A DNA stretch of 64,000 nucleotides from Eutreptiella sp. 'Long Island Sound 2002' (Eukaryota; Protista; Euglenida), in assembly GCA_964036045.1 (NCBI GenBank), contig OZ038378.1, forward strand, positions 166,346,001 to 166,410,000, read 5' to 3'. The notes beneath the pieces are model-generated. The model saw only the letters and a program-made list of their open reading frames with translations. It was not told where the DNA came from and ran no database searches. A program made the translations under genes and the position numbers. Every line of letters begins with the position of its first letter. The first letter of the stretch is position 1. Of this stretch, positions 1-47,400 are shown piece by piece.

Positions 1-405
1 TTGGCCTATCCCTGTCACTCTAAGCGAGCCCTCTCCTTATGTCCTCTCTCTCTCCGTCGTTCATTCAATCCCGTGACATCCCGTGTACAGTGCCTAGTCG
101 TCTTCCTCATTTGCCCCATAGTATGGAGCGGGATCACAGGAACAAGGGGTTTTTATAGTCAACTGGTAGGGTCATCTCCACTGTTGTCAGGTCCACTCCA
201 AAGCTTACATCCCACAACGCCTTCAGCGTTCTTAGATGGAACCCAACACCGAGGCCTTGTGCATAGGACTATGCAGCTTCCCATCACAGGCCAACACAGT
301 ACGGTGAGCCCGGATGGTACGCCACAAAGTTCCAACCAGCTACGGGGGACATTGCCATGCGTTGCATTTTTTGCTGCCGAGAATGTAGAAAATGCATCCG
401 CATGC

Positions 406-430
406 ACTTTCTGAGAGTCTGTTTTTTTCG
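406..430 (+). other. Genomic copy (relic) of euglenid spliced-leader exon
   Basis: ACTTTCTGAGAGTCTGTTTTTTTCG vs the Euglena gracilis SL as I recall it, ACTTTCTGAGTGTCTATTTTTTTTCG (2 substitutions, one T shorter). It is followed by a 16-nt UTR and an ATG, not by the GT of an SL-RNA intron. Confidence 0.85.
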
Positions 431-446
431 CCGCTTTCTTTGCCAA

Positions 447-1493
447 ATGGCCTTTCTCAGCCAGTCGCTTCACCCGACCGCTCTTGACGAGTCGCTTCCG
501 TACCTCCTTTCGCCCCGGTCTTCTCTCAGCGACGGTGTCAGTTCTGAGGGGCACAGTTCAGACAGTAATGACGCTTCCACCGACGAACGTCCGGAGGATT
601 TTTGGAAGTCCTTAAAAAGCAAGGGCATCTGCGTGGCTTTCCTGTTTGGCACCTGCGGACGATTTCGCAATCGCTGCAGGTTTCACCACCCCACGCCTGA
701 AGAGGTTGCGCAAGACACCGAGATTTGTCGTGCAGTGGAAGCTGTGCACGATGGGCACCGCAACCGGCGCTCGGATAGCGGTACGTCAGCAGACGTCATG
801 AAATCACTTCCCAAGACTCCAGGCACTGTGCCAAGCAAAGAGCACCCGAAAGCCCCTGTGCAGCCAACCAGAAGCACAGAAGCCAAGTCCAATCAAAAGC
901 TTCAGAACAACGTGGTAATGCTGGAAGGTTTGGAGCTCGATCCGCTAGATCTGCTTTGCCAAGGTGCGTTCAACGGCACCAACGTCCATGTCTACGACGA
1001 GTTACCACGGCTGTACAACAAGGCGATTAGCGGTCTTCACACTTGTCGGATGTTTGTCTCGCATGCGCTGCGCCTGCGACAGGCACTTCCATCCGAGGAG
1101 CATGACAATTTTGATGGAATGTTTTACCGCCTCGTCAAGCAAGGCATCTTGAGGGCCGTGGAGGCGGATTTGAGCACCAACGTCTCCCAGTTGCTGCGGG
1201 GTCGCGGTGTCCGAAGTGTGCATGTTTTGGATGAGGCTCTTCAGCATGAGCTGCTTGCGCCACAGCACGTCGAGGAAATCATGTCACTCCTGTGTGACAA
1301 TCTGGAGAACTGCTGTGTTGCGCAGCAGGATCTACGGCTACTTTTGGTTGGCCATCTTCTTGGGGATGTGTCGCACCGCTTTCACAGGTGCTGCGGTCAT
1401 CTCTTGCGCGTTCTACCGCATTTGAACGTCGCTGAATTCCACACAGACACCCAAGCGGTGCTTGACAGGCTAATTCAGGTGAGCATGATCTGA
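447..1493 (+). CDS. Intronless CCCH zinc-finger protein (348 aa), probable retrogene
   Basis: Uninterrupted ORF whose first ATG after the SL is at 447 (the ORF-track start at 357 lies upstream of the SL). C-x7-C-x6-C-x3-H motif CVAFLFGTCGRFRNRCRFHH at ~630-690; helical C-terminal half not identified. Confidence 0.8.
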   Translation: MAFLSQSLHPTALDESLPYLLSPRSSLSDGVSSEGHSSDSNDASTDERPEDFWKSLKSKGICVAFLFGTCGRFRNRCRFHHPTPEEVAQDTEICRAVEAVHDGHRNRRSDSGTSADVMKSLPKTPGTVPSKEHPKAPVQPTRSTEAKSNQKLQNNVVMLEGLELDPLDLLCQGAFNGTNVHVYDELPRLYNKAISGLHTCRMFVSHALRLRQALPSEEHDNFDGMFYRLVKQGILRAVEADLSTNVSQLLRGRGVRSVHVLDEALQHELLAPQHVEEIMSLLCDNLENCCVAQQDLRLLLVGHLLGDVSHRFHRCCGHLLRVLPHLNVAEFHTDTQAVLDRLIQVSMI

Positions 1494-2386
1494 CCGCATC
1501 TTCAAACTCTCATACTACCGACAAAGCAGAAGACAATCCCTGTCGACGATCGTCTCGTGTACAGCCCGTATGCCGCCCTGTAGGCCGTTCAGGGAAGGCA
1601 TGCAATGCACTGGGTACTGTCACTGGCGCGCCGCCAGCAGGATGGTGGAAGCCAGAAGCTGAGACACCATGTAAACCTCAAGCCAAAGATACCAGTGCGC
1701 TTGTTCCCTGTGTGCTGAATGTGTAGTATCAAAGGCCGCGCCACCTTTGACGCCCAAGCTTGTTAGTGATCCGAGTGCTGGGCTTCACATTGTCAGCAGA
1801 CCTTTTCTGCTTTGTAGCAGCACGGAGCTTCTATGTCACATCTTCTGTTGCTGTCGCCCCCCGGGACCCCCCCCCCCTCTCCCTCTCACTTTCGAGGTGG
1901 GGGATGGTGTTCGGGTCGATTTCGTGTGGTACTCAGATGAACGTGTTTCGAATCATATTTCTGAGCGCGACCACAGAGCAATGTGCTGTGTGGCGTTTAT
2001 GGTACATTTGCTGCGCACTGTGGTTTGGGGAGTACGTTTTGTGTGCACCATCTATCGCCCCCGTTCGCATTGGGTTACACGCATAGCAGTCGCTGAAGCA
2101 TGTCATGTGTCCTGCCATTCAGCGAGTCCTCATGCCCAATTTCACGTGTTTTGAGCGTCCTGGGCAACGTGCGCAACAATTCAACTGAGTATGCCATCAC
2201 TCTTCCTGATTGTCTTCACAAATATCAGAACCTATCTGTTACCACCATTCCAGAGATGTAATTTCTGTGCCTAATAAGTCAACGATAAATGTCATGCGGA
2301 AGCTGTCGTATGTTCCAGGTCCATCTCCACATGTGCCGCCGAAACTTTCAGCGCAACCCCACAGCAAATGTGTCTTGTTGACGCAC

Positions 2387-2691
2387 AAGAGGACAGTTGA
2401 GTAGGATGCAGAGAGAGTGAGTAAGGACCAGCATACGCTTGATGGAAGAATGTATCTTAGGTTCCCTCCTCGTAGGGACCAGGGCAGACTTAGCCCACAG
2501 TGTCTCCTTGGGATGCGTGACCGATAAGGCATACCCTGATGGTTGCATGTACCACTACTGGGAATCCGAGGGACTGTTTTGTTAAACGCCCCGGACAGAC
2601 CAGCAAGTACTACCATTATGGACCGTGGCATTGCCATGTTTCCGCTCCCCACTGGGGCCCTCTAAGGACTGGCCGAGTACACAAAAAAAAA
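2387..2691 (+). mobile_element. Short retroposon (SINE or 5'-truncated LINE) with poly(A) and 24-bp TSD
   Basis: AGCAAATGTGTCTTGTTGACGCAC at 2363-2386 and 2692-2715; the insert ends in an A run (2683-2692). Confidence 0.85.
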
Positions 2692-2828
2692 AGCAAATGT
2701 GTCTTGTTGACGCACTAGCTGCCACTGTCAGCAGTGCCCGACAGTACTGACTGTCACATGTTTTTGTCAGATGGTTTGGTCACATGGTTTTGAAGGGCAT
2801 ATTGGGTGTTCTCCATTGTGCCACCACA

Positions 2829-3070
2829 CTGTCTTTTTCAGCCTACAGTCTGTTGTGCCTCATGTGCACACGGGGACGCCTATGGGCATTCGGGCATGGC
2901 AGTTTCCCACTGCATGATCTGACATTAGACTCAGCTCATCTTTACTGCTTGTCAGATCCGCTACTGCAGTCATTGGTGGGATCATTGTAGAACTGGACAG
3001 CTCTGAACTTTGATCCCATGAAGCGGCAAACTACATCAGCTCATCTCAGTCTGCCCCCCCCCCAAAAAAA
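2829..3070 (+). mobile_element. LINE-like 3' end fragment (same family as 6107-7471)
   Basis: Aligns by eye with 7230-7471 (CTGTCTTTTTCAGCCTACAG...GACTCAGCTCATC...GTCAGATCCGCTAC...CTGGACAGCTCTGAAC...CAGCTCATCT); ends in a C run plus A7. Confidence 0.7.
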
Positions 3071-6000
3071 GCATGTCTCCTGACTGCGTATACCTGTCCT
3101 TTGTTGATGCATTGTTCCAGTGGTCGCATGTAGTACTGTGTCTGTCGTATCTTCCATGTCCTTCTTCACCTGGTTTGGTACACCGCACTGCTTTTGCGCC
3201 ATGGTTGGGGACAGTGGGCAAGTAGTTTCTGTATCCGGCGCACAACCAGAGATATGCACGGTACTGGGACACCTGTGCACAGTGCACGCCAAGATATTAA
3301 GTTTTTGAGCGTTGGTCAAGGTGCCCTGCGTGGCCGAAACGTCCACTCAAACGCCAGAGCAGAAACCTATGGAAATATGTCCGCCTGTCTCCAACCAGAC
3401 ATATGTCTAAGCTGTGCCCCCCCCCCCCCCCTCCAGTTATGGTGAGGAAGGGTTGCCTGTCATGGTCTCCCAGTGAGCCGGTGTTTGTGCAGGGTGGGGG
3501 CGGAGTGCTTCAGGGCACATGAGGTGTTCCCCCTGCCACTCCTAGAACACTGTGCCCCTGGAACATCATGCCCTTGGACACTACCCCCCCCCCCCCCCGC
3601 TTGCATAGTAACCGCCCTTGCATAGTAATCGGGGTGGCGAGGGAACCGTCACTTTCCGTTTTGTCAATTTACGCAGAAGGTTGGATATTGAGCTTCTCTG
3701 GTGCGTTTGCTGGCTGGCCAAATGCACACAGTCGACCCCAGTCCCCAGTGCGTGCCCGCCCACAGACACAGGCACCATGACAGCTTCTCCCGCTCACCTG
3801 CGCTACAGTGGGGTCCATGGGGACTGTCCTAGTCTGAGCAATCCTACTCCTCCCGGGGCTGCACCCCATATTATGCCTCATCCCAATGTCAGCGGTGCTC
3901 CCCAGAAAGTTTTGTGTGCCCCTTGGGTGAGTTGTATTTCGGTTAGAGAAATGATCTCTTCTCCCAGCTCAAAGATGATCTCGTGATATGCTCGCAACGC
4001 TATGACATTGATGAGAGGCACCCCTGTGGGACCTGGATGTGGCTGTACGTCACCGTGCATTTCCTGCATAACATCGTGGTATTGCACAGGAGTAGAGGTT
4101 GGGATGGGTTTCTGGGCTGCAGCCTCATAGCAGCTGATTGTTGTCCTCCATATCCTCCTGCTCTTCCTCTACAAAGTTGGCTCTTCTGCTTGCGATTCCA
4201 CAATGAGTGGAAGGGCCTCTTGTTTCCTTACCATGTGCAATTTTCCCTTGGCCATGGTGCGCCTGCATTTCTGCCAGCGTTTGACACCTTCTCTGCCGGT
4301 ACCGTACGTCCGACCAGTCAGTTTGGTAAGTTTGCATGCTGTGAGAGTGCCACCATTTGCCATTTTACAGGTTCAGCTCCACCACAGCCGTGAACGGCAC
4401 ATATTCAACGGTGTTGCACAGCGTGATTTTCTCTCCACCTCGGTGTCATGTGCACTTCCAGACTGAGCTCTGGGACAGCTGCAGCACTGGACTGCTCTGA
4501 TTCCTGAATCCAAGAACTCTCTCGAGTACCGTCTGGTAAGAGGGCTTTGCCAGCTTGCTAATGTCTGAACCCAAAAAATAAAACCAGGAATTGCTGGTTT
4601 AGGCGTGACAGTTTTTTTCTTCATCCTATCAACTTTATTGAATTGGGATGCTTCGGCAGGGCAGTTCCCGCTGCACTACCATGCACCAGAGTACACTGCA
4701 GGTCCAGGACCCTTGCCACTGAACATCTTTCATATCTGAATCTGCCACTGAACATATCTCTTCATACCTCTTTTGTACCCCCCGCATCCAACGAATGCCG
4801 TGTCCCACGAACACTTCCGTTCGGACCATATTTTATGAGGACATACATAATTACGCACTTAATTATGTACCCAGCTTCAGAATCGAGGTTTCGGGCAAAA
4901 GTATTGGGGAACTGAGTGGTTCGCAGAGGGGTGACACGAAGGTGTTGGATGGGATGACCCCCCGGCCACTGGCGAACATAGCGTATGTCACCCCCCATCC
5001 ACACGTCGGTTTGGGGTGGGGCGCAGCTCCTGTTCCTCCCCTGGCCCTGTCTCTAGCCCGCAGCCCACCCTGAGGGAGGGCGTCTGCACGTTCGCTTGCC
5101 GGGGCACGGGCTGGCGTGCACTTCGCCCGCCAAGAGAACGGTGCGTTGGCCGGGCGGTGCTGTGCACGGCACTCGTGGGGACGCGGCAGGGGTTTGCATC
5201 GGGCAGGCCTGGCCTTCGGCCAAGGGATGTGTGGCAGGGGAGGCCGTCCCATGCCCATCAATGTGCGGGGTTTCACATGGCGCTGGCACTTGGCGTCAGG
5301 GGGACAGCGGCTGGGCATGGGCTGGGCGCCCTGGAGGCCCCCACCCACCCCCTTCCATCGCACCCCCCCGCCCCTCCGGAGGGGGGGTCCTCAAGCAAAA
5401 AGCCTGCTCCCCCGTGCCAACTCCGCAGCAATTGAGACCCAGGGGGGCAGGCAGGGGGTGCCGGCCTGGCTGAAAGGGGGGGGAGGGAGGGGGTCTGACG
5501 GGGGGAAGGGGGGGGGTGTAAAGGGGGGTTTGGCTGGGACCCCCCCTCCTCCCAGGGTCCCCCTATGGTCCCCGCCGAAGGTAAACCGAACATTTTGAAT
5601 CGTAAATCCCCTTGGCACCGAAGGCGCCGAAGCAAAATGTTGGCTGTCAGCCTCAAACATTGGAAGGGGAGGAGGCGGGGGGGGTCTAGGGGGGGCTACG
5701 GCGCACGGCCTGCCCACCACCCCCCTGCCCATCCCCATCGGCCGAGGCCCCGCACACACGCGCATACCACACACTCCTCCCACAAAACGGGACCCCGCCC
5801 GAGGGCACGACCTCCTCCGGGTGGGTGGGGGGGGGGCAAATCAATGCGGTCCGCTCTGCGCCGTGGACAGGGGCGTCGCGTGTGCAAGCACGCGGGAGCC
5901 CCCCCCCCCCCCACACACACACACTCTCTCTCTCTGTACATAGCCTTGATGTAGTGCAAAAAGGGAGGAAAGGCCGCACAGAGCGGGGTCTGAACATTGC

Positions 6001-6074
6001 TGCAGTGCGAACAATGCTGTAGAGAGGTGATGTATGTTAGCGAACGCTATGGAGTTTGTTGAAATGATTGGGCG

Positions 6075-6106
<32 letters not shown>

Positions 6107-6107
<1 letters not shown>

Positions 6108-7471
6108 GGCGCCCACCCTTCTGGTTACACGCCGGATAAAAAAGCTGCTGACCCAAACCCCTACCTCCCAGAATCGGTCCAAGGCCGTCCGTCACCTCAC
6201 CCAGCACCCTGGTACACCCTACACGGCTGATCTGAAAGCTTTTGCATCCTTGCACTACGTGCATTCCCAGGCGTGTTTCACACCGACCTGCCCCCCCCAA
6301 CCATGCATTAAAGTTTCCGGCTACTGCAATTGCGGATTACAAGCAGTTTGCCCACACCCTCATGCGGCACCGACGGTGGGACATGGAGTTAGGCAGCCGT
6401 TTCCTACAGTATGCCCAATACACAGAAGCCAACCTCCTGCAGCAATTTTACAATCGCATGTGGCGATGTTACAGCAGTTCACGCACCTCCATTGCCACCT
6501 CGCGTCGCCGTATCATTGCCTGGAGGCGCCAAGGGACTCTTCTCCTTGACCACTATGACACACTGATGCAAACGTGCCACACCAGGAAGGAAAAATTTTG
6601 GCTTCAATCCCGACGTACTTTGAGACATCGGTCAATGCAGACACTCACACACGTTGCCACTCAACTACTAAGGGAAAACTGGTCAGCTGCGGAGGACCTG
6701 TTCCGGGCTGCCGTTGCCACCGTACATCACCTCAAAAAGCGCTCCCGGCCCTATGACACTGCAAACCCCAACCTAAAACGGATCTACACGCCCCGCACTA
6801 CCCCTCAACCCTCCGAGTCCGAGCCGGTGTGGCCTAATCCCTGAAGACAGGGACCAACCCCTCTACAGACTTGACATCTGACACTGGATTCTTGCACTTG
6901 GCGGTGGTGTCGGCTGCGCGCCAGTTCCTATTTTTTCACCAACCCATGGCAGGTTGGCCCCCCTGTGGCGTCCTCCCCTTGTCTATTTTTTCCCCCACAG
7001 GTGTGGAATGCCACTCCCCAGCGCGCCGTAACCCTGCCTGTGTTCTACTTCCCATTTTCGCCCTCTTCTGTGTGTCACCAATCACACCACAGCAGTGCGC
7101 TCTGCCCCTGGCGAATAGTGACCCTTTGTGCCTGATTGACCAATCGTGCCTGAATGTCATCCCCCTCCCACTCTGATAGTGTATGACATGCAACCTGTTG
7201 ATTCACCTCGGCCTTCAATCTTCACTCCGCTGTCTTTTTCAGCCTACAGTCATTGTGCCTCACGCACACTGGGAAGCCTACGGGCGTGGCAGTCTCCCAC
7301 TGCATAACCTGGTTTCAGACTCAGCTCATCCTCACTACGTGTCAGATCCGCTACCACAGTCATTTGTGGGATCATCGTAGCACTGGACAGCTCTGAACCT
7401 TGATCCCGAGGGGTCACCTCGAGTACTGTGAAGTGAGCAGGCTACGCCAGCTCATCTTGGTCTGAGCCAAA
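6107..7471 (+). mobile_element. 5'-truncated LINE-like element inserted in a (CA)n microsatellite
   Basis: (CA)n on both sides (6076-6106, 7472-7501); ORF remnant 6242-6844; 3' end shared with 2829-3070. Confidence 0.6.
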
Positions 7472-7651
7472 ACACACACACACCCACACACACACACACA
7501 CGGGCCGCCCTCGGGGACGCGGTTCATGAGGGCACTGCAGCGGCCGTCACACCGACTTCCTCATGCCACGGCCGGAGTAACTGTGGGTAAATTTGTGAAG
7601 CAGGATGTGAGGGAATTGTGTCCCTCAACTACAGGACCTCTATTGCCCACC

Positions 7652-7860
7652 ATGACTGATTCTCTGCTTGCACCTGGCCAGGAGGTGCTATACAAGCGGT
7701 GTCCGTCCCAAAGGTCCCCAAGCCAGATCAGGCTGCCACTTCTGCCTGTGCCAAGAACAAGGAGGGCCCCAAGCCCAGGGAGCATGTTCAGCTTTTCCGC
7801 ATGGAGCAGGACCGCAACAAGGGCTTCTACTCTGAAAAGCGCTAATTGGAGGCCTCCATC
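7652..7860 (+). pseudogene. Degenerate fragment of the transposon-borne Tudor/SH3-like protein
   Basis: MTDSLLAPGQEVLYKR resembles [16 protein letters not shown] (57630); PKPREHVQLFRMEQDRNKGFYS resembles PKGKHVQLFKMKCKVGKGFYS (~11160-11220). Confidence 0.55.
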
Positions 7861-8120
7861 GCTTTGTACTTTGAATGGGCTGGGTGTCTTGTCCCTAGGG
7901 ATGGGTTACCGCCGTTTCACACACCACGCCCTATGCACATTGCTGATTGTGGATTTGCGATGTGCACTCTGCATACACCCACCCTGCCTGACCCAGCCAC
8001 CATCTCTGCATCCAATGCCATGCAAAGTGCTCTTGCGGTATGTTGTGCAGCCATGGCACAGCGACAATTGTGCACAACTGGAACAACATTGGACTGTGGT
8101 ATAAACAGCAAACAGCATGA

Positions 8121-8990
8121 GGGGCGCCCTTAGCGCAGTGCGGGCGCAGTGCAACTATTTGGGCGTCTAGCCGTACTAGAGACCCATACCCATTGTGATA
8201 CTAGGGGCATCATTGTTGCCCCTAGCATAGGTTTTGATGCTTCTTCCACATGGGGCATATGGCACTTTTGGATTTTCACCCACCTTCGCCCATTTCCACC
8301 CCTTTTCACATTTTGTTTTGCTCATCTTCACCATAGACTCCCACATTTTGGTGTGGGCCCTTGAGTTGGGGTGATGGACTCCCACGCTTTGGCGTGGCCC
8401 CTCGAGTTGATATGACGGACTGCCTGATTTTTGCCTGACCATAGTCGAATGCCCTATGCAAGGCCGCATTCCTGTTGATGAGGAAGCGTGGTTGTGCCAC
8501 AAGTTGAAAACAGAGGTTGATGTGGATTCCCTCCCGCAAGAAACTTTGCCCCCCGGTCCAGTTGAGGGTGGGGTGGACACATACGCGGCTTTGGGACTAG
8601 CTGGTAGGGTGAGTGACCTTTCAATTGAACAAAAAAGAGGATATGTGTGTGGCTTTCCGCATTTTGCATGATGTCTTATATAAAGGGAAGGTAGCTGCAT
8701 TTGTCTTGAGCTAGGGTACTTTGGGTGACCTAAATTTAGGGGCATTTGGGTAGCTAGGGTGGCGTAATTTTGAGGGTGTTTGGAAGGGCCCGGTCCCCTT
8801 ATGCTATATGCACAACAGACTCGAAAACACCCGCGATGCATACTGGTTTGCAGAGGAAGGAGGTCACGTGCCGTGAGGCAATGCGCCTGCGGGCCCACCA
8901 ATACCCCAGCTACGCACTAGAATGAGGCCAACACACACGCGATCGAGGGGAATCTAGTCTACACGTAGCGCGCAGTGCAAGGGTTCCCCC
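8121..8990. mobile_element. PIF/Harbinger-like non-autonomous DNA transposon
   Basis: Imperfect TIR GGGGCGCCCTT...AAGGGTTCCCCC; 3-bp TSD TGA (8118-8120, 8991-8993); both ends homologous to 23284-23972. Confidence 0.7.
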
Positions 8991-9783
8991 TGAGCTGCCA
9001 GTTGGAGGCACCAAGGTGTAGCGCGTGTAAAGAGCTGATTGGAGTCAGCCGTGTCAATTGATTTGTGGCAGTCCATTTGCAAATGCCAGATTGATGTCTA
9101 AAATCTGCTGTTTTTGCCCTGTGGACGTCTCCTTCCCCGGTGATGGGTGGTTTTCAGGGTGGTCATGGGAAAGCTAACTTACTATTGGGCTCTGTGCGCG
9201 CACTGTGCAGAGACGCCCCAACACTGCCTTGGCACACCTGCTGGTTTGAAGTTGGAATGGCTCACAATTGCGGTCGTGGACCTGGCACTTTCACATTGGC
9301 CCATCTGATCACAAAACAAAGGGGTGGCTCACAATTGTACCTTCGTTTTGGAATAATGAAAACCGACCCCCCCCCATTTTCAATAGGGCAAAGCTCATGG
9401 CTGTTATTGTAGTGGTCAGGCAATTTGGATCTTGCAATAGGAAAATTGCAGTGGCAATGGATTTGGAGTATGGCAACAAAATGGGTGGCTGTCCTCTGCT
9501 GGGCCCGTCTCTAATGTGGATCTCTGGATCTAGTTGCTTTCTCTTGTTGGGTCGTCTTGCACTGTTTTTCACTAGGTGGAGATGTCGAGCCATGCAGGTT
9601 TACGTGGCAATGATACGGCAGATACTGATTAGCAAATAGAGGGCAGATAGAGGACATAAGCGACCCGACCGGGACCGATGCCACTGGTGTCGAACTCTGG
9701 CTGTGTCTCCGGTGGCGCCACCTGGGCCGGAGCAACCCTCGTCGCCAACACCACAAGAGCAGGTCACCGGAGGAGCACGGCCA

Positions 9784-9846
9784 AAACACTAGTTGAACCT
9801 CGTTTCAATTTTTGTTTGCATTTCTTCTCTCTTTTTCTGTCTTTAT
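9784..9846 (+). repeat. Shared ~60-bp hairpin leader (copy 1)
   Basis: AAACACTAGTTGAACCTCGTTTCAATTTTTGTTTGCATTTC, near-identical to 11948-11988. Confidence 0.75.
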
Positions 9847-10653
9847 TTTGGGAGGAGGGGGTCCCCCCCCCCCCCCTCACCCCCATCCGCACGGCAAGCA
9901 TGGCAATACAGCACTCAGTGGCTGGGGTGTCGATTATTGCGGCTGTGAGACTAAGGCAAGCAGCGGTCGACTTTGCCAGCGTTGGGACCGCCAGGGTTCA
10001 CACCAACCTTGGCAACACCGATGTGGGTGTGGACATCGACGTTTTCGCCATGCCTGTTGGGGCGCGCGCTGACTTTGATGGGCGGCCGTGAGTACTGTCG
10101 ACCCAGGATCCCCTTCGCGAGGCCTATGGGGAATGCCGAGGATGACATGGCATCACTGAGCGGTGCCAATTTCGGCTTTGCCGGTTTCGCCCACATGCTC
10201 CAGGATGAGGAACTGGCCGCCCTGAGAATGACGATTCCCAGAGTTTTGACACTACCACTGTGGAGTTAACGACTGACACTGCCACTGTGGAGTTGGCGAC
10301 GGAAGTCGAGGCCCCGGGGCGGCTATCTGCGGTCACAGCCTGCTCGGGCACAACCAGAGCATGCATTGTTTGGGGAACACCGTCAAAGCCTGGACACGCT
10401 GTGAGTGATGACTTTTTTGGATGACGGCGATAATCTCAGGTGTCTCAGGAAATCAAGCTGGTTCTTGATGGTGGCCATTGAAGAGTTGGTGTCTTTCGGG
10501 GAGCCTATGATTCTTTGGGATTGGATGATGACCATGGCATATTCGCCGATTTGTGATATCGAAAATCGAGGACGGCCGGCTCGCAGTGTTTTGGACATTG
10601 GGTGCTGTGTGTAGGCCGTCGTGATTGCTGGGGACCCTGTCGTAAGCCGGGAG

Positions 10654-11457
10654 TCCTCCCCCCCCCCCCCCCTTGCGCAAGCACGGCCTTGTCTAAGCAC
10701 GAAGACCCCGTGTGACCGTTGTTTTGATGGGTTTTTCTGACCACGGTTTTTATGGTCAGAAATTCATTGTTTCGTGATTGTGCGCTGATTGTCTAGGGAA
10801 AGAAGGGCTGGGTCATGTTTGTGATGGTTCCTCTTGCTCACAACAACATTCTGATTGGTACTGCAACCCAATGGTAATTGCTTTGCTGTTGTTTTTAGCC
10901 ATGAAAATGTTGCTATCGCTGGCTTGGGTGTCACATACATCCGATCCACTAGTGAGCATGCACCTGCCACCATCGTTGGTCCTTCTACGCGTGGAGATGA
11001 CTTCATGCATTTGAAGTACATGAGGAATGGGCATGAGCTTGAGCATCATGCCCCTTTTGATTGTGTTTGCTTCCCAATCCGCAGCCCATCCCCATCACCA
11101 TCAGAGGCAGCCCAAACCTATTCCCAAACCTGCAGCCAAGCCTGCTCCAAAGCCTATCCCGAAGGGGAAACATGTGCAACTATTTAAGATGAAGTGCAAG
11201 GTTGGAAAGGGTTTCTATTCCGTACTCGTTGATGGGCAGTAAGGACATGAGGACCATGCTGAATTTTGCCTACACGTTGTGTTCTAGTGCCATGTTTGTG
11301 AGTGATGTGCTTGGTGTGGGGTACGGGCAGGTTTTCTGTGTGCAGTGTCTCTTTGTGTTGCGCGTCGCGCGCAAGCACGGGCTTGTCTAAGCGCGGGGAC
11401 CCCGTGTGACCGTTGTTTTTCTGACCTTGGCCGTGCTTGCGCAAGGGGGGGGGAGGG
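10654..11457. mobile_element. Poly-C/poly-G TIR MITE (Tc1/mariner-pogo-like) carrying a protein fragment
   Basis: TIR C(n)TTGCGCAAGCACGGCC / GGCCGTGCTTGCGCAAG(n); TA at the right flank; direct subterminal repeat GCAAGCACGG.CTTGTCTAAGC...ACCCCGTGTGACCGTTGTTTT near both ends. Confidence 0.75.
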
Positions 11458-12615
11458 TAAGCACATAATTTTTTATTGGTTGCTGTGTGTACAGGGTTTT
11501 CTGCCCGGGCCTACCTTCATGCCATCCAGCTTGAAGAACGCTTCGGTTTTTTTTCTATGCATAATCTGACGTGCATGACCTGAGTGCACCGTTGCGGCGT
11601 ATTGGGGGGAGGGGGGCTGCATGTTTGTTGCGAGTTGCTGGGCGTCCACGGCTTGGCGGTCCTCTGGCCTTTTGGCTGTCGAGGGCTGTAGAGAGTGGTG
11701 CTAGCTCAGCCGCAACACACTTACATGCCCCCAATTTTCTGTATTTTCTTGGGGGGGGTGTTTAGGACTCAGTTTCCACCCTCCTTGTACGCTGTTGGCA
11801 CCATAACCAGCGGGTCTCCGGATGGTACCATGGGAGTGGCTGGGTGGGGTTGGGGGGGGGGGGGGGGTTGGCGCCTCGGGAGGGCGAGCCCAGGGCGGAG
11901 AATGAACACCCAAATTCTGTTGCAGTATTCTTGTGCTCCGCCTTTGCAAACACTAGTTGAACCTCGTTTCAACTTTTGTTTGCATTTCCTCTCACTTAGG
12001 CAATTCTGTCTTTTCCCACCCACCCACCCTCGGCGGCCACACTCCTTCTCGGTTGGCTCGGCCGCCCACCCCCCCCCCCCCCCGCAGTGTGTGGGTCGTG
12101 TATGGCTGCGTCCCGGCCCTTTTGGAGACTGTGATTGTGTTGTTTGGTCGGGTCCAACATTATGACCGGTTCGCTTGCCGGCAATCTAAAGTGCTGAGCG
12201 GGAGGCTGTTTTCGCCCCCGGGTTCTTGCGTACTGTCGGTCTTGCGCTGTGAGCAGGGATTGAGTCCGCATAGCGTGCGGGCAACTACGGCTCTCTTGGA
12301 GGGCTGGATGCAGCTACTATCACCGGCGATGCCGGTCTTTGGTGACATTGTACTGCTGCCGTCCCAAATTCTGTTGCAGTATTCTTGTGCTCCGCCTTTG
12401 CAAACGGCCGCGGAAGCCACGTGCGGGATCCTGGCAGTGCAGCTGTGGAAATGTGAACTATCCATCCCAGGTTGTTTGCAACTGGAGAGGATGCAATCTA
12501 AGCCGACCCGCGGCCAACCCCATTGTCGTTGTTGATCAAGCAGGGAAGATTGTCCGTGATGCCACCCATGCACCCACCGGTGCATCTCACGGGTGCGACA
12601 CCATGACCGCCTCTA

Positions 12616-12841
12616 CGAAACGCACCACCCCCTCGCAGGCCCAGCCTGCCCCTGTGGAGGGGTACATCCCGGTGCCACCAGTGTTGGACAAGTTGTTCCC
12701 CCGCTAGAGATCGGAGTGGCTCACTCCTCGAAACGCACCACCCCCTCGCAGGCCCAGCCTGCCCCTGTGGAGGGGTACATCCCGGTGCCACCAGTGTTGG
12801 ACAAGTTGTTCCCCCGCTAGAGATCGGAGTGGCTCACTCCT
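12616..12841. repeat. Perfect 113-bp tandem duplication
   Basis: 12616-12728 = 12729-12841. Confidence 0.9.
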
Positions 12842-12957
12842 CTGGAAAATCATTGGGTAGCTACAAGCCTGAGGCCGGGAAAGGAACCCAGACGGTCCGT
12901 CTATGCGTCCGAACGGGTCCACCCTTACCGCCCCATCTAGCCCCCATCCGTCCCGTC

Positions 12958-13318
12958 GACGGATGAGCTCCTCCGTGAGCTCCGGGCCATCGTGGTCCAC
13001 AGTGTAAGGGCCCCTTGCAGGAAGCTGGATTGCAAGAAGGCTACAGCGAGAGCAGATGTGCCTCCATGGACAACTGCCGGTCGGACCTGCTATACTAGGG
13101 CCGCAGCTGTTACTCCTCACTCTGGGTTTCCCATAGCGATGGACGAGCTCCTCCGGGAGCTCTGGGCCATCCATGTGTCCACAGTGTAAGGGCCCGCTAC
13201 AAGAAACTGGGCTGCAAGAATGCTACAGCGAGAGCAGATGTGCCTCCATGGACAACAGCCGGTCGGACCTGCTGTACTAGGGCCGCACTTGTTACTCCTC
13301 ACTGCCGGGTCTCCCATG
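12958..13318. repeat. Diverged ~180-bp tandem duplication
   Basis: Two copies of GAGCTCCTCCG.GAGCTC.GGGCCATC...CTACAGCGAGAGCAGATGTGCCTCCATGGACAAC...GTTACTCCTCACT. Confidence 0.85.
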
Positions 13319-14752
13319 GTGCCTTTGCACATTGGACCGAAGGGGACTCAACTCAACTCATCGTGTCACCATTGTGCATGTACGTCACCCCAGATGATTA
13401 GGATGACACTTGACCGCTCTATGACCTGGCCACTCGCAGAAAGCCCACCAGAAAATTCCCCAACCTAACCACAGCCACTGTGCCTGCCCTCACGACTCTC
13501 AGTTCACCGACTCCCCATGACACCTCAATGACACACACATGCGGCGCGACACACGTGCACTCACGCTACACCCGCAATTTGCCGCCACACCGCCACGCCA
13601 TGGTATGACAAAGCCACAGGACTTATCCACATGCACACAAGACCCACACATGATGTCCCCTACGCGTCCTACATGCTCTTATCCTATGCTGGGCTTTACC
13701 CTCACACAAGACTTGAGCTCGCTGTGTTGAGCTGCAATGGAACTTTACATGCATGATCCTGATCCAATCCACACACCACATAGGTTAATCATTTGGATTG
13801 GCCCACAGATGTTGCCCCTGTGTGTGGTGCACGCACTTGTCCTGTGTTTTGCCTGTACACGGGACCGGGCTGCAATGTATATGCACTTAGAGTCGCATGT
13901 TGTTGGCACAATACACACATCACTCACTATGAACGAATGCCTTCTAGGCGTGGCAGATCGTCTGCACTAGTGCATGAAGGAATCACACATGTTATGTCAG
14001 CATGATGCATGGATCTGTGGTCAACTCAGTTTCTTAGTGCGTCTCGGCTGTACATAAATGGACCTTCGGCTTTCCGGGTTCTCCCGAGCACACTCAATGA
14101 CAACTTGAGCATCAGGAACTCAAACAAAATGCATCCGCATGCACACACCTGCGTCAGCTAACCCTCACTCTACCCAATGCCCAACTCTCTCTTCCATCGT
14201 GTGTCATGCCCTCCGACACTTCTTACACGCCTCCCTTGTAGGTGCCATCATGAGGACCAATTTCAAAATCGAAGAACTGTCCATGAGTGCGTGAAGGGCC
14301 TCTTGCATCCGAAATCATTACATCTGTTGTGGTCCCCAGCATAAGATCACAACTCCACACAATATTTCCCAAGGTTATCCATTGCCACGGTAACTTTATA
14401 CACATGAGATGCATACTTGGGATCAAATAACACACCTGCAAGAGTGCCACCCACTATGCATATGGGCATGCTATCAATATAGTGGGTAACAAAGTAAGGG
14501 AAATGGGTATCGTGGTACACCACGTGATATACCAGGAGCGGCTGCATGAGGCGGACCTATCATATCATATCCTGGGTCTAAGACACGCACTTATCCAAAA
14601 AGGCTTGCAACGGCGCGAAGAAGCACCACACAACACAGCCTGCTCACCGCCACAAGCCAAACGGACATGTACGACTAGGAGGATAACAGGGCGAATCAGA
14701 GCATCAATGGACTCACCCATGCACATCCCCGTAGCAAAGAAAACTTGTCATA

Positions 14753-15247
14753 GAGGGTGCCTCGCGCGCGGTGCGCGCGGTGCGACTGTAGCCCGGTTGA
14801 CTTAGAACGGCGGTACCATAGAATGTTGCCAAAAAGCGGTCATAGGGGCCTTAGTATCACAACTAGGTGGCCAATTGTTGTGTTTGGGTGGAAATAGCAA
14901 TGTCCAGGTGTAGAAGTGGGCAGCAGGGCACCTTGTGCATTAGAAAATATCGGTGTGGTTATGTTTTGTGTTAAAACAAAGCATTGGGAAACAAACATTG
15001 CAGTGGAAACCAAACATTTTGAGACCGTTTCAAAACAAAGCATTGCGAAACAAACATTGCAGTGGAAACCAAACATTTTGAAACCGCTTGAAAACAAAGC
15101 ATTGGGAACCAAACATTGCAGTGGGAACCAAACATTTTACTGTAGCATTTCACAAAACACCTGTCTGAAAAAGGTGTGCATTTCACCGGTAAGTGACGCG
15201 TCTGCCTCAGCGCGCGGTGCGCGCGCGCGGTGCGCTGAGGCACCCTC
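14753..15247. mobile_element. Harbinger-like MITE with internal ~55-bp tandem repeats
   Basis: Perfect 11-bp TIR GAGGGTGCCTC/GAGGCACCCTC; TSD ATA (14750-14752, 15248-15250); 3 repeats of AAAACAAAGCATTG...AAACATTGCAGTGG.AACCAAACATTTT at ~14973-15138. Confidence 0.8.
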
Positions 15248-20426: not shown

Positions 20427-23400
20427 CGGGGTGGATGCACCCAGTATTTTTCTAACAAGGGGAGGGGGGTATTCATAAAGGGCAAAGGGGGACATGTTTC
20501 CAAAAATTGCGAACGCCTACTGTTGTTCTGACAAAGGCATTGTTCTTGCAAGCGGGGGTGACAATCAGTGCAGTACATGCACAGCCTTGTGTGTGTTGTT
20601 GGGCAGGAAAATAGTGTGTTGCTACATCGGGGTAGCCCAGTTACCTGAAACCTTGGCGTGCAGGGCCACAGGCATCTGTAATGTAAGTGCACTAGAAAAT
20701 GCACAACGACGTGGATTGGGAGGCATCCAATATATGAAGACCCACACTCACCCAAAAGCAAGTCAAGCCGCAAACATTGCAACGCATCAAGACTGCCATA
20801 TACTGCCTGGGCACTATATAAACTGGTCAGCCCCATGATGAACAGTCGCCATGAGGATAGGATCGCTCATCACTTGGATCATCTTGAACAGGAACCCAAG
20901 ACCAATAGTCACGCAAATCGCCGGGGACAGAGGAGAGCATCTGGGATTTGGGAAGTGCACAGACATGGTTACACACCCCCCCCCCCCACCGTATGGGAAT
21001 CCCGTATTCCCCTTACAGCCCCGAACAGTGGCCCGTACAGTGGGTTCTCAGAACCATACCACAGAAATAGACAATATTAGGCACCCATTTGTCTCTTTTT
21101 CCTGCCCTCCCCTATGCTCCTGACCAGACTATGCCTTGTAATGTATGCCACTCCAAGAATGCTGAAACTGTTGCTTTTTTGTCTTTGGCCGAGTTGGATC
21201 GTTGTACCCTTCGACAGAAGCATTCTGATTGTGCTGAAGATTGGGTTATTTGTGAACTGTGTGTCCGCCAAGCCCAGCCAAATCCTTTTTTTGGATCAAC
21301 GCAAAGTATGGGAAGTATTGGTTGTGCAACAACAATGGAGTTCTGACTTGCGGGCAATCACTGCTTTAACTTTGCCAGTGACCACCACTGTTGCAGAGGG
21401 GTCATGCTGAGAAAAAACACCAGAAAAAGTGCCAGAAAGGGCGCCAGAAGCAGGATTTGAACCAACGACTTTTGAGTTGCATGTGTATATGTACCAACTA
21501 GGGTATGACATGTTTCTGCTGACACCATGCTAATTGGTGGTATAGATTGTGAACATATTTTGGGGTTTGGGGTCACTACGCAATGCCCTGCTGAGGGTTT
21601 TCTTACCAAAAATGGTCCGCCCCGCACAGTGGCCCGTACAGTGGAAAAATTTTGCCCCGAACAGGGGGGGGGGGGGAGGTTACATTCGCCCACTGGGCAT
21701 GCAGGGCATGCAGTGATATATTCTGAATGGGTCGAAAAAGAGTATGTGGTCTGTGGCACCATACCAACTGCCTGTACCAGAGGCATGTGCCTGAGACTGC
21801 ATGCCAAACCCGCTTTTGGAGATGCAAGGGGACTACTGATAATGAAACTGATTCCTGCATTTCTGTACTGTACTGCAGACCCAAGCCTCTCCCGAACAAA
21901 ATGAACCGAAAGCATCATTTCTAACCCGTTATCATACATGTCATCTGGGCTGCATGACTGTGAAGCTGAAAACTTAAACTGCGTAGGAGGCTGTCGAAGG
22001 GCATCAACATCTCTCCAGGGACGTCTTCACAAAACCTCGTGGTGGAGTGCACCAGCCACGCAATACCCACACGCACGCACACATGTTGAGAACCGCAAGA
22101 CGAGAACAAAGCCACCCAACACACTAGAATTTTAGGCTGTGGTGTACATAAAATATGAGCTCCTCAGGGGGCTTATTTGAGGTGTGGGGAGGGCAGGGTT
22201 CATTTGCTTCATACAGCACGAAACATGTCTCCATGTGCACTGCTTCTTCATCAGACCGAACGACGTCTAGGACAGCTCTGTTGTCTTCAACTACTTTTTC
22301 TTAGTTGTGTTTTCTAGAGTTATGCCCCTTTTTGGCATTTTAATTGTGAGCAGCATCTGAATTGCAGGAGGTTCTTTGAGGACATTTTAGACAATGTGGA
22401 CGTTTGTGGCCCACACTCTAGTAGGGCAAGGGCAAGCAGATTTGAATTGAGTGCACAAGTTGTTGACACAGTGTGCCATGCCATGTGATTGAAGCACAAG
22501 GTAGCTGTGTTTGATAAATTTTTGCCCCTTTGGGGCATTTTGATTGTGAGCAGCATCTAGATCGCAGGAGGTTCCTGGAGGATAGTTCAAACAACGTGGA
22601 TTTTTGTGGTTCACACCACAATAGGACCAGGGCTGCAGGGCTTGGCCAAGCAGATTTCAATTGGGTGCACCAGTTGTTGACATAGGAAAGGGGGGCTATA
22701 TGGGTCAAATTTTGAAAAATTCATTGGGGGATCATTTTGTCGCCCAAGATGATGGTTTTACAAGGGGTAAGACATCCGGTATCATACATTGGGTTATGCT
22801 ACACGGATGACCCCAAACTAGGAGGGTATAAGACGCCAATGCGTGCGCTTGATCTAACAACCTCTTTTCGAGGTGAGTTGATGGAAACAAGGGTACCACT
22901 TTGGGGGGGGGTCGGGGGGGGATCAAAATTTCTTTGCGCATGGTGGCCGCTGTGTGTTGAATTTGACCCAGGTCATGCGCAATTTTTGTCTTGTTCATGG
23001 ACCCCTAACCAATGGTGGGGTCTTGGGTCCGAACACCGGGTACCCCAAGGTGCCCTCCCCTCACCAGTGAGGATGTTTTCAGGTTGGCATGCGGCGGCTG
23101 AAAATCACCTCACAGAGGTTGTTAGATCAAAACCACGCAACCGTATGTATGGGAAAGTGCCACATACCCCACCTTTGCATACCCTATCCCCGGGGGTTGA
23201 ATTGTTGGTGTGACCCCTTGCAAAAGCATCATTCTGTCCAAAAAACACACCCCCCAATGAGTTTTTGGTGGGGACCCCCCTAAGGGGGGCGCCTTAAGTG
23301 CAGTGTGCACACAGTGCAACTATTTGGGCGTATGGCCGTAGTACAAACCCATACTTTGTGATACTAGGGGCATCATTATTGTTTGATAACATGCATTTTG

Positions 23401-44400: not shown

Positions 44401-47400
44401 GAATTGTGTTCTTGCTTTCTGCTACCAGGGTTTTTCTTAGTGTGTGTCCTACCCTACGGGGGGCAGGGGGGTTGTCAGAATTTCTGGGTGGGTGGGTTTC
44501 CAACCCCCCTCCCCTCCCCCTGTAGGGTGGGCCATTGTGGGGGACTTTGGGTCAGCGCCAAAGGCGCTGGTCTGTGGTAAGGCATTTTGCCTATGGTAGT
44601 TGGGTAGATGGTTGGGTGGGTGGGTGTCCAATAGCCCCCCCCCCCCCCTTTGGGGGTGGGACATTTGTGAGTCTGTGGGTTTGCCAAAAATCTGGGTGGG
44701 TGAGTCCCTCAAATTACAGCCTCCCCCCCCCCCCCCGCGGTTAAGAAAAGCCCTGTCTGCTACCCCGTCCATGCACGGCTTCCAGGTTCACATTCGTGAC
44801 GACCAACGGGACGGATGTCAGGGAAGCGCCATTTGTTGGGGCTTTCACTGGGGTCGGAGCCTGGCAGTACGGTGAAGTGCTGTATACACCGGAGTTCCCT
44901 TTGAAAACAGTGACAATAGAACTGATCCTTGAAAACTGGAGCCCAGGTCTGAATGTACTTTGCAGCTCAAGGAGGGGGACTGATGTGCGTTAGAGATAGG
45001 AGAGAGGAATCCCCAGGGAATCCTTATAGGGAAATAGGGTCCCCAGGGGCTGTACAGGGGCATTTGGGAATGCCTTCACTGCTGAGCGGCAAAGCAGCGG
45101 GGCAGTTGTGGCAGTTACCAACACAGTTGGCAGCGCTTGGGGCCAGGTCACGGCTTAGTGGCGACCGGGGGGGGGGGGGGTCAGAGCGGCTTAGTGGCGA
45201 CCGGAGGGGGGGGGGGGTTGATTGGGTGGGTCAGAGGCCAAAAAAAACTTTGTGTACCTAAAATCGACCTCCAATTTCCGCCCCATTCGATAAATTTCAT
45301 TCTTTTCCGGAGGAAAAATTTTCTGATGTGGGAGGAGCCCAGGCCACCATTCTGCCCCCCCCCCCCCCCCCGGTAACGGTAAGCTGTGGCCTGGTTGGGG
45401 CCATAGGCCATAGCCCAGGGCATCCCTGTGTTGGGCTATGGAAGATGAATCCCAGAATCACCACCCCATACCATTGCAGCAACAGAATCAGCAACGGACA
45501 AGTGTCCGTATCATAAGTCTACGAGATGCCTAATTGTTCAGTTGGGGGTGGGGCAGGCGGGGGGGGGGGGGAGCACAGGTGCGGTATCCCCACCCTCTAC
45601 ACTCTATGTCCCTCCATCCACTTGACACTACCCTCAGTGATCCACGCAGGTACTGCCAAAACGAGTGCCATGCTTCACATGCCATATTCCACAGACGGTG
45701 CCGTCACAGTCCGAAGGCAGGGCAGCCACACTACAAAGGCAAGGCCACGGTCCAAAGGCACTGCGAGTGGGAGACCGCCTGACAGACCACTGCCGTCTGG
45801 TGTTTTGCCGAGTGCTGTCGGAAATGCATTGTACGACGCGTCGGGGCGTCGTACAAGGCGTCGGGGCCCGACGCGTCGGGAGCGTACGACGCGTCGTACA
45901 GTGTCGTACAAGGTGTCGTACAGGCGGGTAAACGATGACTACTGGGGACCCCTTGCATCCCGGCAGGAGCACTGCCCCCGGCCCCTTGCATCCCGGCAGG
46001 AGCACTGCCCCCGGCCCCTTGCATCCCGGCAGGAGCACTGCCCCCAGCCCCTTGCATCCCGGCAGGAGCACTGCCCCCGGCCCCTTGCATCCCGGCAGGA
46101 GCACTGCCCCCAGCCCCTTGCATCCCGGCAGGAGCACTGCCCCCGGCCCCTTGCATCCCGGCAGCAGCACTGCCCCCGGCCCCTTGCATCCCGGCAGGAG
46201 CACTGCCCCCGGCCCCTTGCATCCCGGCAGGAGCACTGCCCCCGGCCCCTTGCATCCCGGCAGGAGCACTGCCCCCAGCCCCTTGCATCCCGGCAGGAGC
46301 ACTGCCCCCGGCCCCTTGCATCCCGGCAGGAGCACTGCCCCCGGCCCCTTGCATCCCGGCAGGAGCACTGCCCCCGGCCCCTTGCATCCCGGCAGGAGCA
46401 CTGCCCCCAGCCCCTTGCATCCCGGCAGGAGCACTGCCCCAGCCCCTTGCATCCCGGCAGGAGCACTGCCCCCGGCCCCTTGCATCCCGGCAGGAGCACT
46501 GCCCCCGGCCCCTTGCATCCCGGCAGGAGCACTGCCCCCGGCCCCTTGCATCCCGGCAGGAGCACTGCCCCCGGCCCCTTGCATCCCGGCAGGAGCACTG
46601 CCCCCAGCCCCTTGCATCCCGGCAGGAGCACTGCCCCCGGCCCCTTGCATCCCGGCAGGAGCACTGCCCCCGGCCCCTTGCATCCCGGCAGGAGCACTGC
46701 CCCCGGCCCCTTGCATCCCGGCAGGAGCACTGCCCCCGGCCCCTTGCATCCCGGCAGGAGCACTGCCCCCAGCCCCTTGCATCCCGGCAGGAGCACTGCC
46801 CCCAGCCCCTTGCATCCCGGCAGGAGCACTGCCCCCAGCCCCTTGCATCCCGGCAGGAGCACTGCCCCCGGCCCCTTGCATCCCGGCAGGAGCACTGCCC
46901 CCGGCCCCTTGCATCCCGGCAGGAGCACTGCCCCCGGCCCCTTGCATCCCGGCAGGAGCACTGCCCCCAGCCCCTTGCATCCCGGCAGGAGCACTGCCCC
47001 CAGCCCCTTGCATCCCGGCAGGAGCACTGCCCCCGGCCCCTTGCATCCCGGCAGGAGCACTGCCCCCGGCCCCTTGCATCCCGGCAGGAGCACTGCCCCC
47101 GGCCCCTTGCATCCCGGCAGGAGCACTGCCCCCAGCCCCTTGCATCCCGGCAGGAGCACTGCCCCCAGCCCCTTGCATCCCGGCAGGAGCACTGCCCCCA
47201 GCCCCTTGCATCCCGGCAGGAGCACTGCCCCCGGCCCCTTGCATCCCGGCAGGAGCACTGCCCCCAGCCCCTTGCATCCCGGCAGGAGCACTGCCCCCAG
47301 CCCCTTGCATCCCGGCAGGAGCACTGCCCCAGCCCCTTGCATCCCGGCAGGAGCACTGCCCCGGCCCCTTGCATCCCGGCAGGAGCACTGCCCCCAGCCC

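Follow-up and report, generated by a model that had tools for sequence, protein, structure and literature searches.

The 64,000-nucleotide stretch of Eutreptiella sp. 'Long Island Sound 2002' DNA analysed here (contig OZ038378.1; hereafter the window) carries an expressed, intronless CCCH zinc-finger gene headed by a genomic relict of the spliced leader (SL). Two exact copies of a 19-mer bracket this gene within a larger unit, one running into the relict leader and the other lying 13.7 kb away, directly behind a retroelement-like repeat here called element H. With about even confidence, the unit is read as an SL-tagged gene copy derived from one target-primed event, in which an enzyme of the long interspersed nuclear element (LINE) type would have copied a multi-kilobase, leader-capped read-through RNA, the resulting copy being enlarged later. 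The elements of the locus on which this reading turns are:

389 to 407, + strand: left copy of the target-site duplication (TSD), starting with AAAA, its last 2–3 nt overlapping the leader; crossed by DNA contigs of runs X1 and X8
405 to 430, + strand: genomic relict spliced leader, identical to the published Eutreptiella SL in 24 of 27 alignment columns
414 to 415, + strand: internal AG of the relict leader, serving as splice acceptor when a fresh leader is added; mature RNA consists of the SL, relict 416–430 and the untranslated region (UTR)
431 to 446, + strand: 5′ UTR of 16 nt, read from the sequence
447 to 1493, + strand: intronless coding sequence (CDS) of 348 aa with a single CCCH zinc finger and a helical domain predicted to be MIF4G-like
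1494 to 5068, + strand: transcribed 3′ tail through repeat debris, common to sister copies of the gene up to at least 2373
14126 to 14144, + strand: right copy of the TSD, preceded by AAAC; the presumed priming site

The earlier sequence-only reading had described a 19-mer that abuts the SL, with its final AC overlapping the leader, and recurs at 14126–14144. Both copies are indeed exact, and they are the sole positions on the + strand of the window that match with fewer than five mismatches. Markov models of the window predict 1e-7 to 2e-6 copies of the 19-mer in 57 kb, and 2e-6 to 2e-5 copies per 57 kb of the 17-mer that is left when the AC overlap with the leader is removed; 20 simulated windows contained six exact pairs of at least 17 bp in all, at any position. 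The real window, outside two masked arrays, holds 12 isolated exact pairs of at least 19 bp, most of which represent repeat families or the flanks of short inserts, and the 389/14126 pair alone is anchored at the leader. No second duplication candidate pairing with the leader was found in the window. The microhomology between the 19-mer and the leader amounts to 2–3 nt, giving a duplication of 16–19 bp.

Contigs from several sequencing runs were compared with the window; runs X1 and X8 behave as DNA, X4 and X5 are RNA, and X10 is RNA by guess only. Statements on coverage and absence refer to the contigs listed, 32 of more than 84,000. The left junction is genuine DNA: one X1 contig covers 1–531 with no difference at a depth of 38.7, and one X8 contig covers 132–556 with a single difference. 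The X1 contig passes 407 unbroken, and no empty allele is evident in X1; self-BLAST of the window likewise yielded no homologue of either flank usable as an empty site.

The published Eutreptiella SL is 28 nt long (PMC3621762), and the relict at 405–430 differs from it by two substitutions and one T fewer, a leader that identifies the source as a euglenid. With a local alignment score of 19, against 12 and 10 for the next best places, 405–430 is the only SL-like match in the 64 kb. Leaders are added to RNA only, and a leader sequence in DNA therefore points to an RNA origin. An SL RNA gene or a CRE/SLACS insertion was considered and rejected, the leader being followed by the 16-nt UTR and an ATG, with neither an SL intron nor an array. 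No relevant Rfam match was obtained in 1–15000 (three chance-level matches).

The gene is expressed, and a fresh leader is joined at 415/416 of the genomic relict. Joining at the AG at 414–415 had been predicted beforehand, and contigs of X5 and X10 matched the prediction. The X5 contig begins at 415 and is preceded by the loose letters T7C, the end of the leader, and the X10 contig passes from the leader end directly into 416–421; an X4 contig starts at the same base, 415, after five loose letters whose identity is not displayed. Meanwhile, the depth at 281–350 is 0 in X4, X5 and X10. The locus thereby displays two marks of an SL retrogene, namely an SL or its relict just upstream of the CDS in genomic DNA and, in the transcript, a fresh SL joined to a relict truncated at its AG. 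A metagenome scan for the leader-plus-relict motif gave 0 matches, in a collection that may hold no such transcripts.

The reading frame at 447–1493 is free of interruptions. Its description as an intact intronless CDS therefore stands for the 348-aa frame, but needs qualification at the 3′ end, where a TGA at 1491–1493 takes the place of a Gly codon and stops translation 30 codons ahead of the stop of the sister copies. Downstream of the CDS, transcription continues for several kilobases. X4 RNA contigs with 0 differences cover 3457 of the 4654 nt of 415–5068 (74%) at depths of 2–9, and the RNA depth stays at 4–9 between the CDS and 5068 without dropping, which argues that the copied sequence has no strong poly(A) site close after the CDS. 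The X4/X1 depth ratio is ~0.11–0.2 on single-copy contigs in 415–5068, compared with 0.0005 over the bin of a high-copy miniature inverted-repeat transposable element (MITE), and this difference rules out DNA carry-over as the RNA signal; the corresponding ratio in run X9 is flat (0.006–0.054). X4 depth is absent at 10001–10500 and 12501–13500, the missing contig cover not being taken as an earlier transcript end. For Diplonema, a relative, 3′ UTRs of multi-kilobase length have been described (PMC10161547).

Three sister copies of the gene (P0002, P0007 and P0008), with proteins 85–88% identical, are situated on three different long contigs. Their N-terminal residues back-translate to the SL with 2–3 mismatches, and the background minimum of this procedure is five mismatches, reached by 2 of 51,097 placements. 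In X1, paralogous contigs at depths of 120–137 extend through a common 3′ UTR as far as 2373 or beyond, with variants that recur in the RNA of X4 and X5. The X1 depth is 56 at 351–420 and 122 at 421–490; from this step, sister homology appears to begin at ~406, the left flank not being common to the sisters. DNA duplicates sharing the left flank were rejected as an explanation on the same depths, and the sister loci look like separate SL-headed insertions. The 5′ UTR of the sister copies is 4 nt longer than 431–446 of the window. If the Ser codon of the sisters is AGC, the UTR of the window would start right after an AG, and one may speculate that the parent had two tandem acceptors and that retroposition took place twice, independently. 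Furthermore, in one X1 contig the ATG is joined to a T-rich stretch of at least 255 letters that lacks a leader, and a further short copy, P0010, is more diverged; either of the two could be a relic of the parent.

At the other end of the unit, element H consists of two pieces separated by a nested insert:

9655 to 9787, + strand: 5′ piece of element H with the second RanBP2-like finger, 5′-truncated relative to its homologue P0009
9788 to 12405, no strand assigned: nested 2.6-kb insert splitting the H frame, two head-to-tail units (9788–11951 and 11952–12405) that share both ends
12406 to 14125, + strand: 3′ piece of element H with a RanBP2-like finger, a decayed frame and internal duplications of 113 and 180 bp

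The homologue P0009, a frame of 329 aa, has RanBP2-like fingers (Pfam E 0.003). It aligns to 9655–9786 and then to 12402–13316, and slicing out 9788–12405 turns this into a single in-frame alignment (E 9e-89). A LINE-like element had been delimited earlier at 11952–14125. These bounds are mistaken, 11952–12405 being the second unit of the nested insert and the P0009 alignment spanning the split, and, no reverse transcriptase (RT) domain having been found in the frames searched, H is a candidate LINE at most. The first 80 residues of P0009 are missing from H; residues 1–82 were not detectable in 1494–9700 (best E 0.046), and the junction at ~9655 is bridged by a DNA contig (9161–9813) of single-copy depth. 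The summed depth over H climbs toward 14125, from ~5 through 7 and 21 single-copy units to ~119 at 13997, a rough measure that gives no copy number, and this rise is the 3′ bias expected for 5′-truncated retroelements. With its 3′-rising depth and one longer homologue, H may belong to a dispersed 5′-truncated family whose copies would share the 3′ end. H has no duplication of its own, because the only partner of the right 19-mer sits at the SL.

Between the gene and H, further self-contained inserts are nested in the unit:

2363 to 2715, + strand: insert resembling a short interspersed nuclear element (SINE) at 2387–2691, tailed by A9 and flanked by a 24-bp duplication (2363–2386 and 2692–2715); X4 RNA contigs bridge both junctions
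6107 to 7470, + strand: retroelement-like 3′ fragment with a 202-aa frame, located between two (AC)n tracts, its boundaries presumed
8121 to 8990, no strand assigned: nested high-copy MITE with imperfect terminal inverted repeats (TIRs) and a TGA duplication

Together with the 2.6-kb insert, these sum to 5184 bp and leave ~8.5 kb. The end repeats of the internal inserts are perfect (24/24 bp, 43/43 bp and 3/3 bp), and the 2–3 changes accumulated by the SL do not conflict statistically with a TSD that has stayed the same (Fisher p 0.19 and 0.08). The sequence-only reading had taken identical TSDs around diverged transposons as favouring a copy of the whole 13.7 kb; for the two reasons just given, this argument is weak.

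LINE insertions arise by target-primed reverse transcription, and a target-site duplication, an A-rich 3′ junction and 5′ microhomology are typical of them. The duplication flanking the present insert, with its AAAA start and 2–3 nt of 5′ microhomology, fits such a process. The word that follows the 3′ end of H has its sole partner in front of the leader, so that a single event most likely ran from the A-ended terminus of H to the cap. A LINE-type enzyme would have primed on the A-ended 3′ terminus of the retroelement-like H, and a single round of target-primed reverse transcription would have proceeded from there through a read-through RNA to its 5′ end. A read-through RNA is favoured by the lack of an A tract before H, by the even RNA depth down to 5068 and by the 3′ UTRs of several kilobases in Diplonema. 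The copied RNA was probably shorter than 13.7 kb, up to ~8.5 kb if every recognised insert came later, the nested transposons likely having swelled the unit afterwards. The copy may persist since the relict leader holds an AG usable as an acceptor, in the manner of dinoflagellate-like mRNA recycling. Other long duplications in the window also accompany short segments: within the unit, the A-tailed SINE-like insert carries its 24-bp duplication, and outside it unrelated short segments are flanked by two exact direct repeats, one of 19 bp at a spacing of 601 (21025–21644) and one of 44 bp at a spacing of 508 (57401–57952). This genome may be prone to long duplications. The earlier proposal of one RNA-templated insertion reaching from the SL to the end of the TSD is upheld in its core by the re-trans-splicing and the SL-bearing sisters. 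Its option of a read-through copy survives as a multi-kilobase copy later enlarged, and the strict version, in which the whole unit was copied, loses its main argument.

Several observations weigh against this mechanism. The leading As of the right 19-mer had been described as merging with an A-rich end, but the A stretch at the 3′ junction is AAAC followed by the AAAA of the duplication and nothing longer, so that the A tail is minimal. None of the contigs listed bridges 14126–14144, and the right junction consequently rests on the assembly. Of the 152 stop-to-stop frames of at least 55 aa in 1494–15000, 150 were compared with Pfam and gave neither an RT nor an endonuclease, a search that short decayed pieces might escape; the sub-threshold matches in these 150 (zf-C2H2_14, DUF4532, DUF5732, Conotoxin, DUF5447 and Se-cys_synth_N) were taken as noise. 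No relatives of P0009 were present among 1604 candidates, the predicted fold at the 3′ end of H is no better than that of shuffled sequences (z 0.18), and H is a putative LINE. Neither a source locus nor an intron-bearing parent nor an empty allele was found in the available reads and contigs, and a metagenome scan with the protein produced 86 pattern matches, of which 0 were confirmed. The X1 contigs listed at 1786–2242, 2644–3001, 3676–4538, 4810–5312, 8815–9161 and 9161–9813 have single-copy depth (38–45), and hence X1 contains no identical source. The absence of introns is weak evidence for a retrocopy, the family being intron-poor. Moreover, the RNA evidence consists of contigs throughout, X4 and X5 may come from one campaign, and the leader of the X10 contig has a C within its T run and so is probably primer-derived, the letters after it being template. 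The long RNA tail, finally, belongs to the locus of today and not to the parent: should polyadenylation depend on a downstream trans-splice site, as reported in trypanosomes (bioRxiv 10.64898/2026.10.18.760011), transcription of a short mRNA copy would likewise continue past its end.

These points leave room for other routes to the same structure. In a possible, though rather doubtful, route by template switching or RNA ligation, an RT working on H RNA would have stopped at ~9655, jumped to the CCCH mRNA and run to the leader, most of the intervening DNA arriving later. The truncation of H at ~9655 relative to P0009 would suit such a jump, as would the unseen source locus and the separate positions of P0009, on a 415-kb contig, and of the sister genes, on contigs of 359, 672 and 433 kb; chimeras of mRNA and LINE-1 inside one TSD occur in mammals (PMC11838501). 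However, no A tract marks the end of an mRNA at the H junction, the RNA does not step down before 5068, and ~5.9 kb still lie between the stop codon and H after removal of three recognised inserts. It is unlikely that, at the opposite extreme, a single copying of a read-through transcript yielded the whole 13.7 kb with all internal transposons. The perfect TSD would agree with this, RNA does pass through at least one nested insert, and the paralogous contig that continues past 2373 into letters resembling the start of the SINE-like insert hints at inserts older than the copy. Yet the internal inserts have perfect end repeats of their own, X1 shows no identical second copy, and the leader drift and the 85–88% identity of the sisters leave time for later insertions in a repeat-dense genome.

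The duplication itself can also be given other origins. Capture during repair is quite unlikely; here a cDNA or DNA segment with the SL retrogene would have been patched into a staggered double-strand break, so that repair and not a LINE endonuclease made the duplication. The minimal A tail, the lack of an RT-coding element at the 3′ end and the 2–3 nt of 5′ microhomology would be accommodated by such a process, to which, as non-homologous recombination, dinoflagellate recycling has been ascribed (PMC9311404). However, the breakpoints coincide with the exact start of the leader on the 5′ side and with the A run ending a 3′-biased repeat on the other, the duplication begins with AAAA, and an A-tailed insert with a similarly long duplication is found inside the unit. 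A coincidental pairing of the 19-mers, a widespread repeat motif or a misassembly, with the true 3′ end of the retrogene elsewhere, is very improbable: the anchored expectation is 1e-5 or lower, the left copy is contained in an exactly matching contig of single-copy depth, and no other duplication candidate pairs with the leader, although the right junction is unbridged among the contigs listed and isolated exact pairs of at least 19 bp do occur 12 times in the window outside the masked arrays.

Recycling of mRNA is known from dinoflagellates, of which recycling via relict leaders is a hallmark, and from Perkinsus and Paulinella, and Slamovits and Keeling reportedly dealt with the dinoflagellate case in 2008. 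As in the relict-SL retrogenes of dinoflagellates, a genomic SL stands upstream of a CDS in the window (PMC6050394, PMC5585692, PMC12014239), and the transcripts carry a fresh SL ahead of a relict that is cut at an internal AG (PMC12014239, PMC5585692). Only 6–10% of the dinoflagellate SL retrogenes are paired with parents, and for the present gene, as for most of those, the parent was not found. Unlike the dinoflagellate cases, the window presents another lineage and another leader, a long duplication that fixes both ends and suggests target-primed copying, and a unit of many kilobases ending in a repeat; in dinoflagellates, the mechanism is given as unknown, with long terminal repeat elements favoured (PMC6050394). 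The mammalian mRNA/LINE-1 chimeras and 5′ transductions (PMC11838501) resemble the window in placing mRNA sequence 5′ of a same-sense retroelement within one TSD. They mostly involve short first exons and near-full-length LINE-1, whereas here a complete capped CDS of an expressed gene is combined with a truncated, unclassified 3′ element. In Paulinella micropora, likewise a trans-splicing protist outside the dinoflagellates, an SL is located within 100 bp upstream of genes (PMC9311404); six verified candidates are described there, with recombination as the proposed route, and the window differs by its TSD analysis. CRE/SLACS elements of kinetoplastids (PMC12278014) also join a TSD-forming, non-LTR event to an SL in euglenozoans, but these insert into SL RNA genes and encode an RT and a restriction-like endonuclease, whereas in the window the SL lies inside the insert and no RT was found.

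A literature search, with subscription papers mostly outside it, yielded no relict-SL retrogenes in euglenids, and supplements on Euglena gracilis and Diplonema could bear on this; the accessible portions of papers on the genome (PMC11252322) and the introns (PMC11170887) of E. gracilis do not discuss them. What is new here is the lineage, DNA and RNA evidence combined at a single locus, and a duplication that links a recycled gene to the 3′ end of a repeat far away. If the target-primed reading is true, dinoflagellate-style mRNA recycling extends to euglenids. Tentatively, one may go further and suggest that euglenids run a recycling cycle of their own by target-primed retroposition: capped read-through RNAs of 8–14 kb would be picked up by a retroelement 3′ end in their tail, pasted back whole and made expressible at once via the acceptor of the leader. 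The present family would then have been recycled at least two times independently, and giant TSD-bounded retrogenes would be common. The locus makes testable, genome-wide, which enzyme makes SL retrogenes and what length of RNA it can copy. The survival of SL retrocopies, it suggests, is aided by a leader that brings along a working splice acceptor. Annotation based on retrocopy searches confined to a few kilobases would miss the ends of such units.

Regarding the gene family, a search among 1.84 billion sequences returned 12 family representatives at E ≤1e-10. Pfam gave no match for the window CDS alone, and a profile of 14 family members matches Muscleblind CCCH fingers (E 5e-8). MIF4G of Pfam was matched weakly in 3 of the 14 members (best E 0.044). 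The top Foldseek matches of the C-terminal part are the MIF4G domains of DAP5 and eIF4G (best E 0.012), that to DAP5 having a probability of 1.0 and a TM-score of 0.54 over the target for a model with a mean pLDDT of 63.5; the helical C-terminal part is thus predicted to resemble MIF4G, and an RNA-binding regulator is a reasonable guess for the gene product. Two CCCH fingers are present in most of the longer relatives and one in the window clade. The distant members, one of which is labelled Eutreptiella gymnastica in UniRef, are long unspliced frames with apparently ~1 intron each, the apparent introns being seen as abrupt divergence between P0014 and P0030 and between P0028 and P0012. At least 12 diverged, intron-poor members with CCCH and predicted MIF4G-like parts were noted (P0011–P0021, P0028, P0030 and P0032), and their translated N-termini show no trace of the leader. 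In P0001 and P0003, the His259 and early stop of the window (positions 1221 and 1491) are mixed with sister states, by either chimeric assembly or recombining alleles.

Some details of the nested inserts may be added. One X1 paralogous contig runs past 2373 into letters resembling the start of the SINE-like insert, which could predate the split from the sister copies. Within the retroelement-like fragment, 7230–7470 is a very high-copy 3′ end that recurs at 2829–3070; the summed depth of this repeat reaches thousands of single-copy units, and it is abundant in X4 RNA, unlike the MITE at 8121–8990. The MITE, presumably Harbinger-like, has 157 contigs starting at 8121 and a second copy at 23286. 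A TIR element occupies 10660–11457 inside the 2.6-kb insert, whose units display a short hairpin and CTAG at one end as well as subterminal inverted repeats. These ends may be Helitron/Helentron-like termini; the shared 43-bp end could be a long duplication instead. The 3′ ends of the SINE-like insert and of the units of the 2.6-kb insert fold no better than shuffles, and the end of the high-copy family at 7390–7472 comes nearest to significance (z -1.89).

Downstream of the CCCH unit, one or more intron-rich genes extend on the + strand from 17737 to ~61900, with an apparent signal peptide and Kelch-like and Cys-rich repeats, as read by eye from lists of open reading frames. In addition, a 33-bp satellite of ~150 or more units is situated at 45800–51300, interrupted by a gap of 200 N at 48311–48510, and a 21-bp array is located at 52630–52940.

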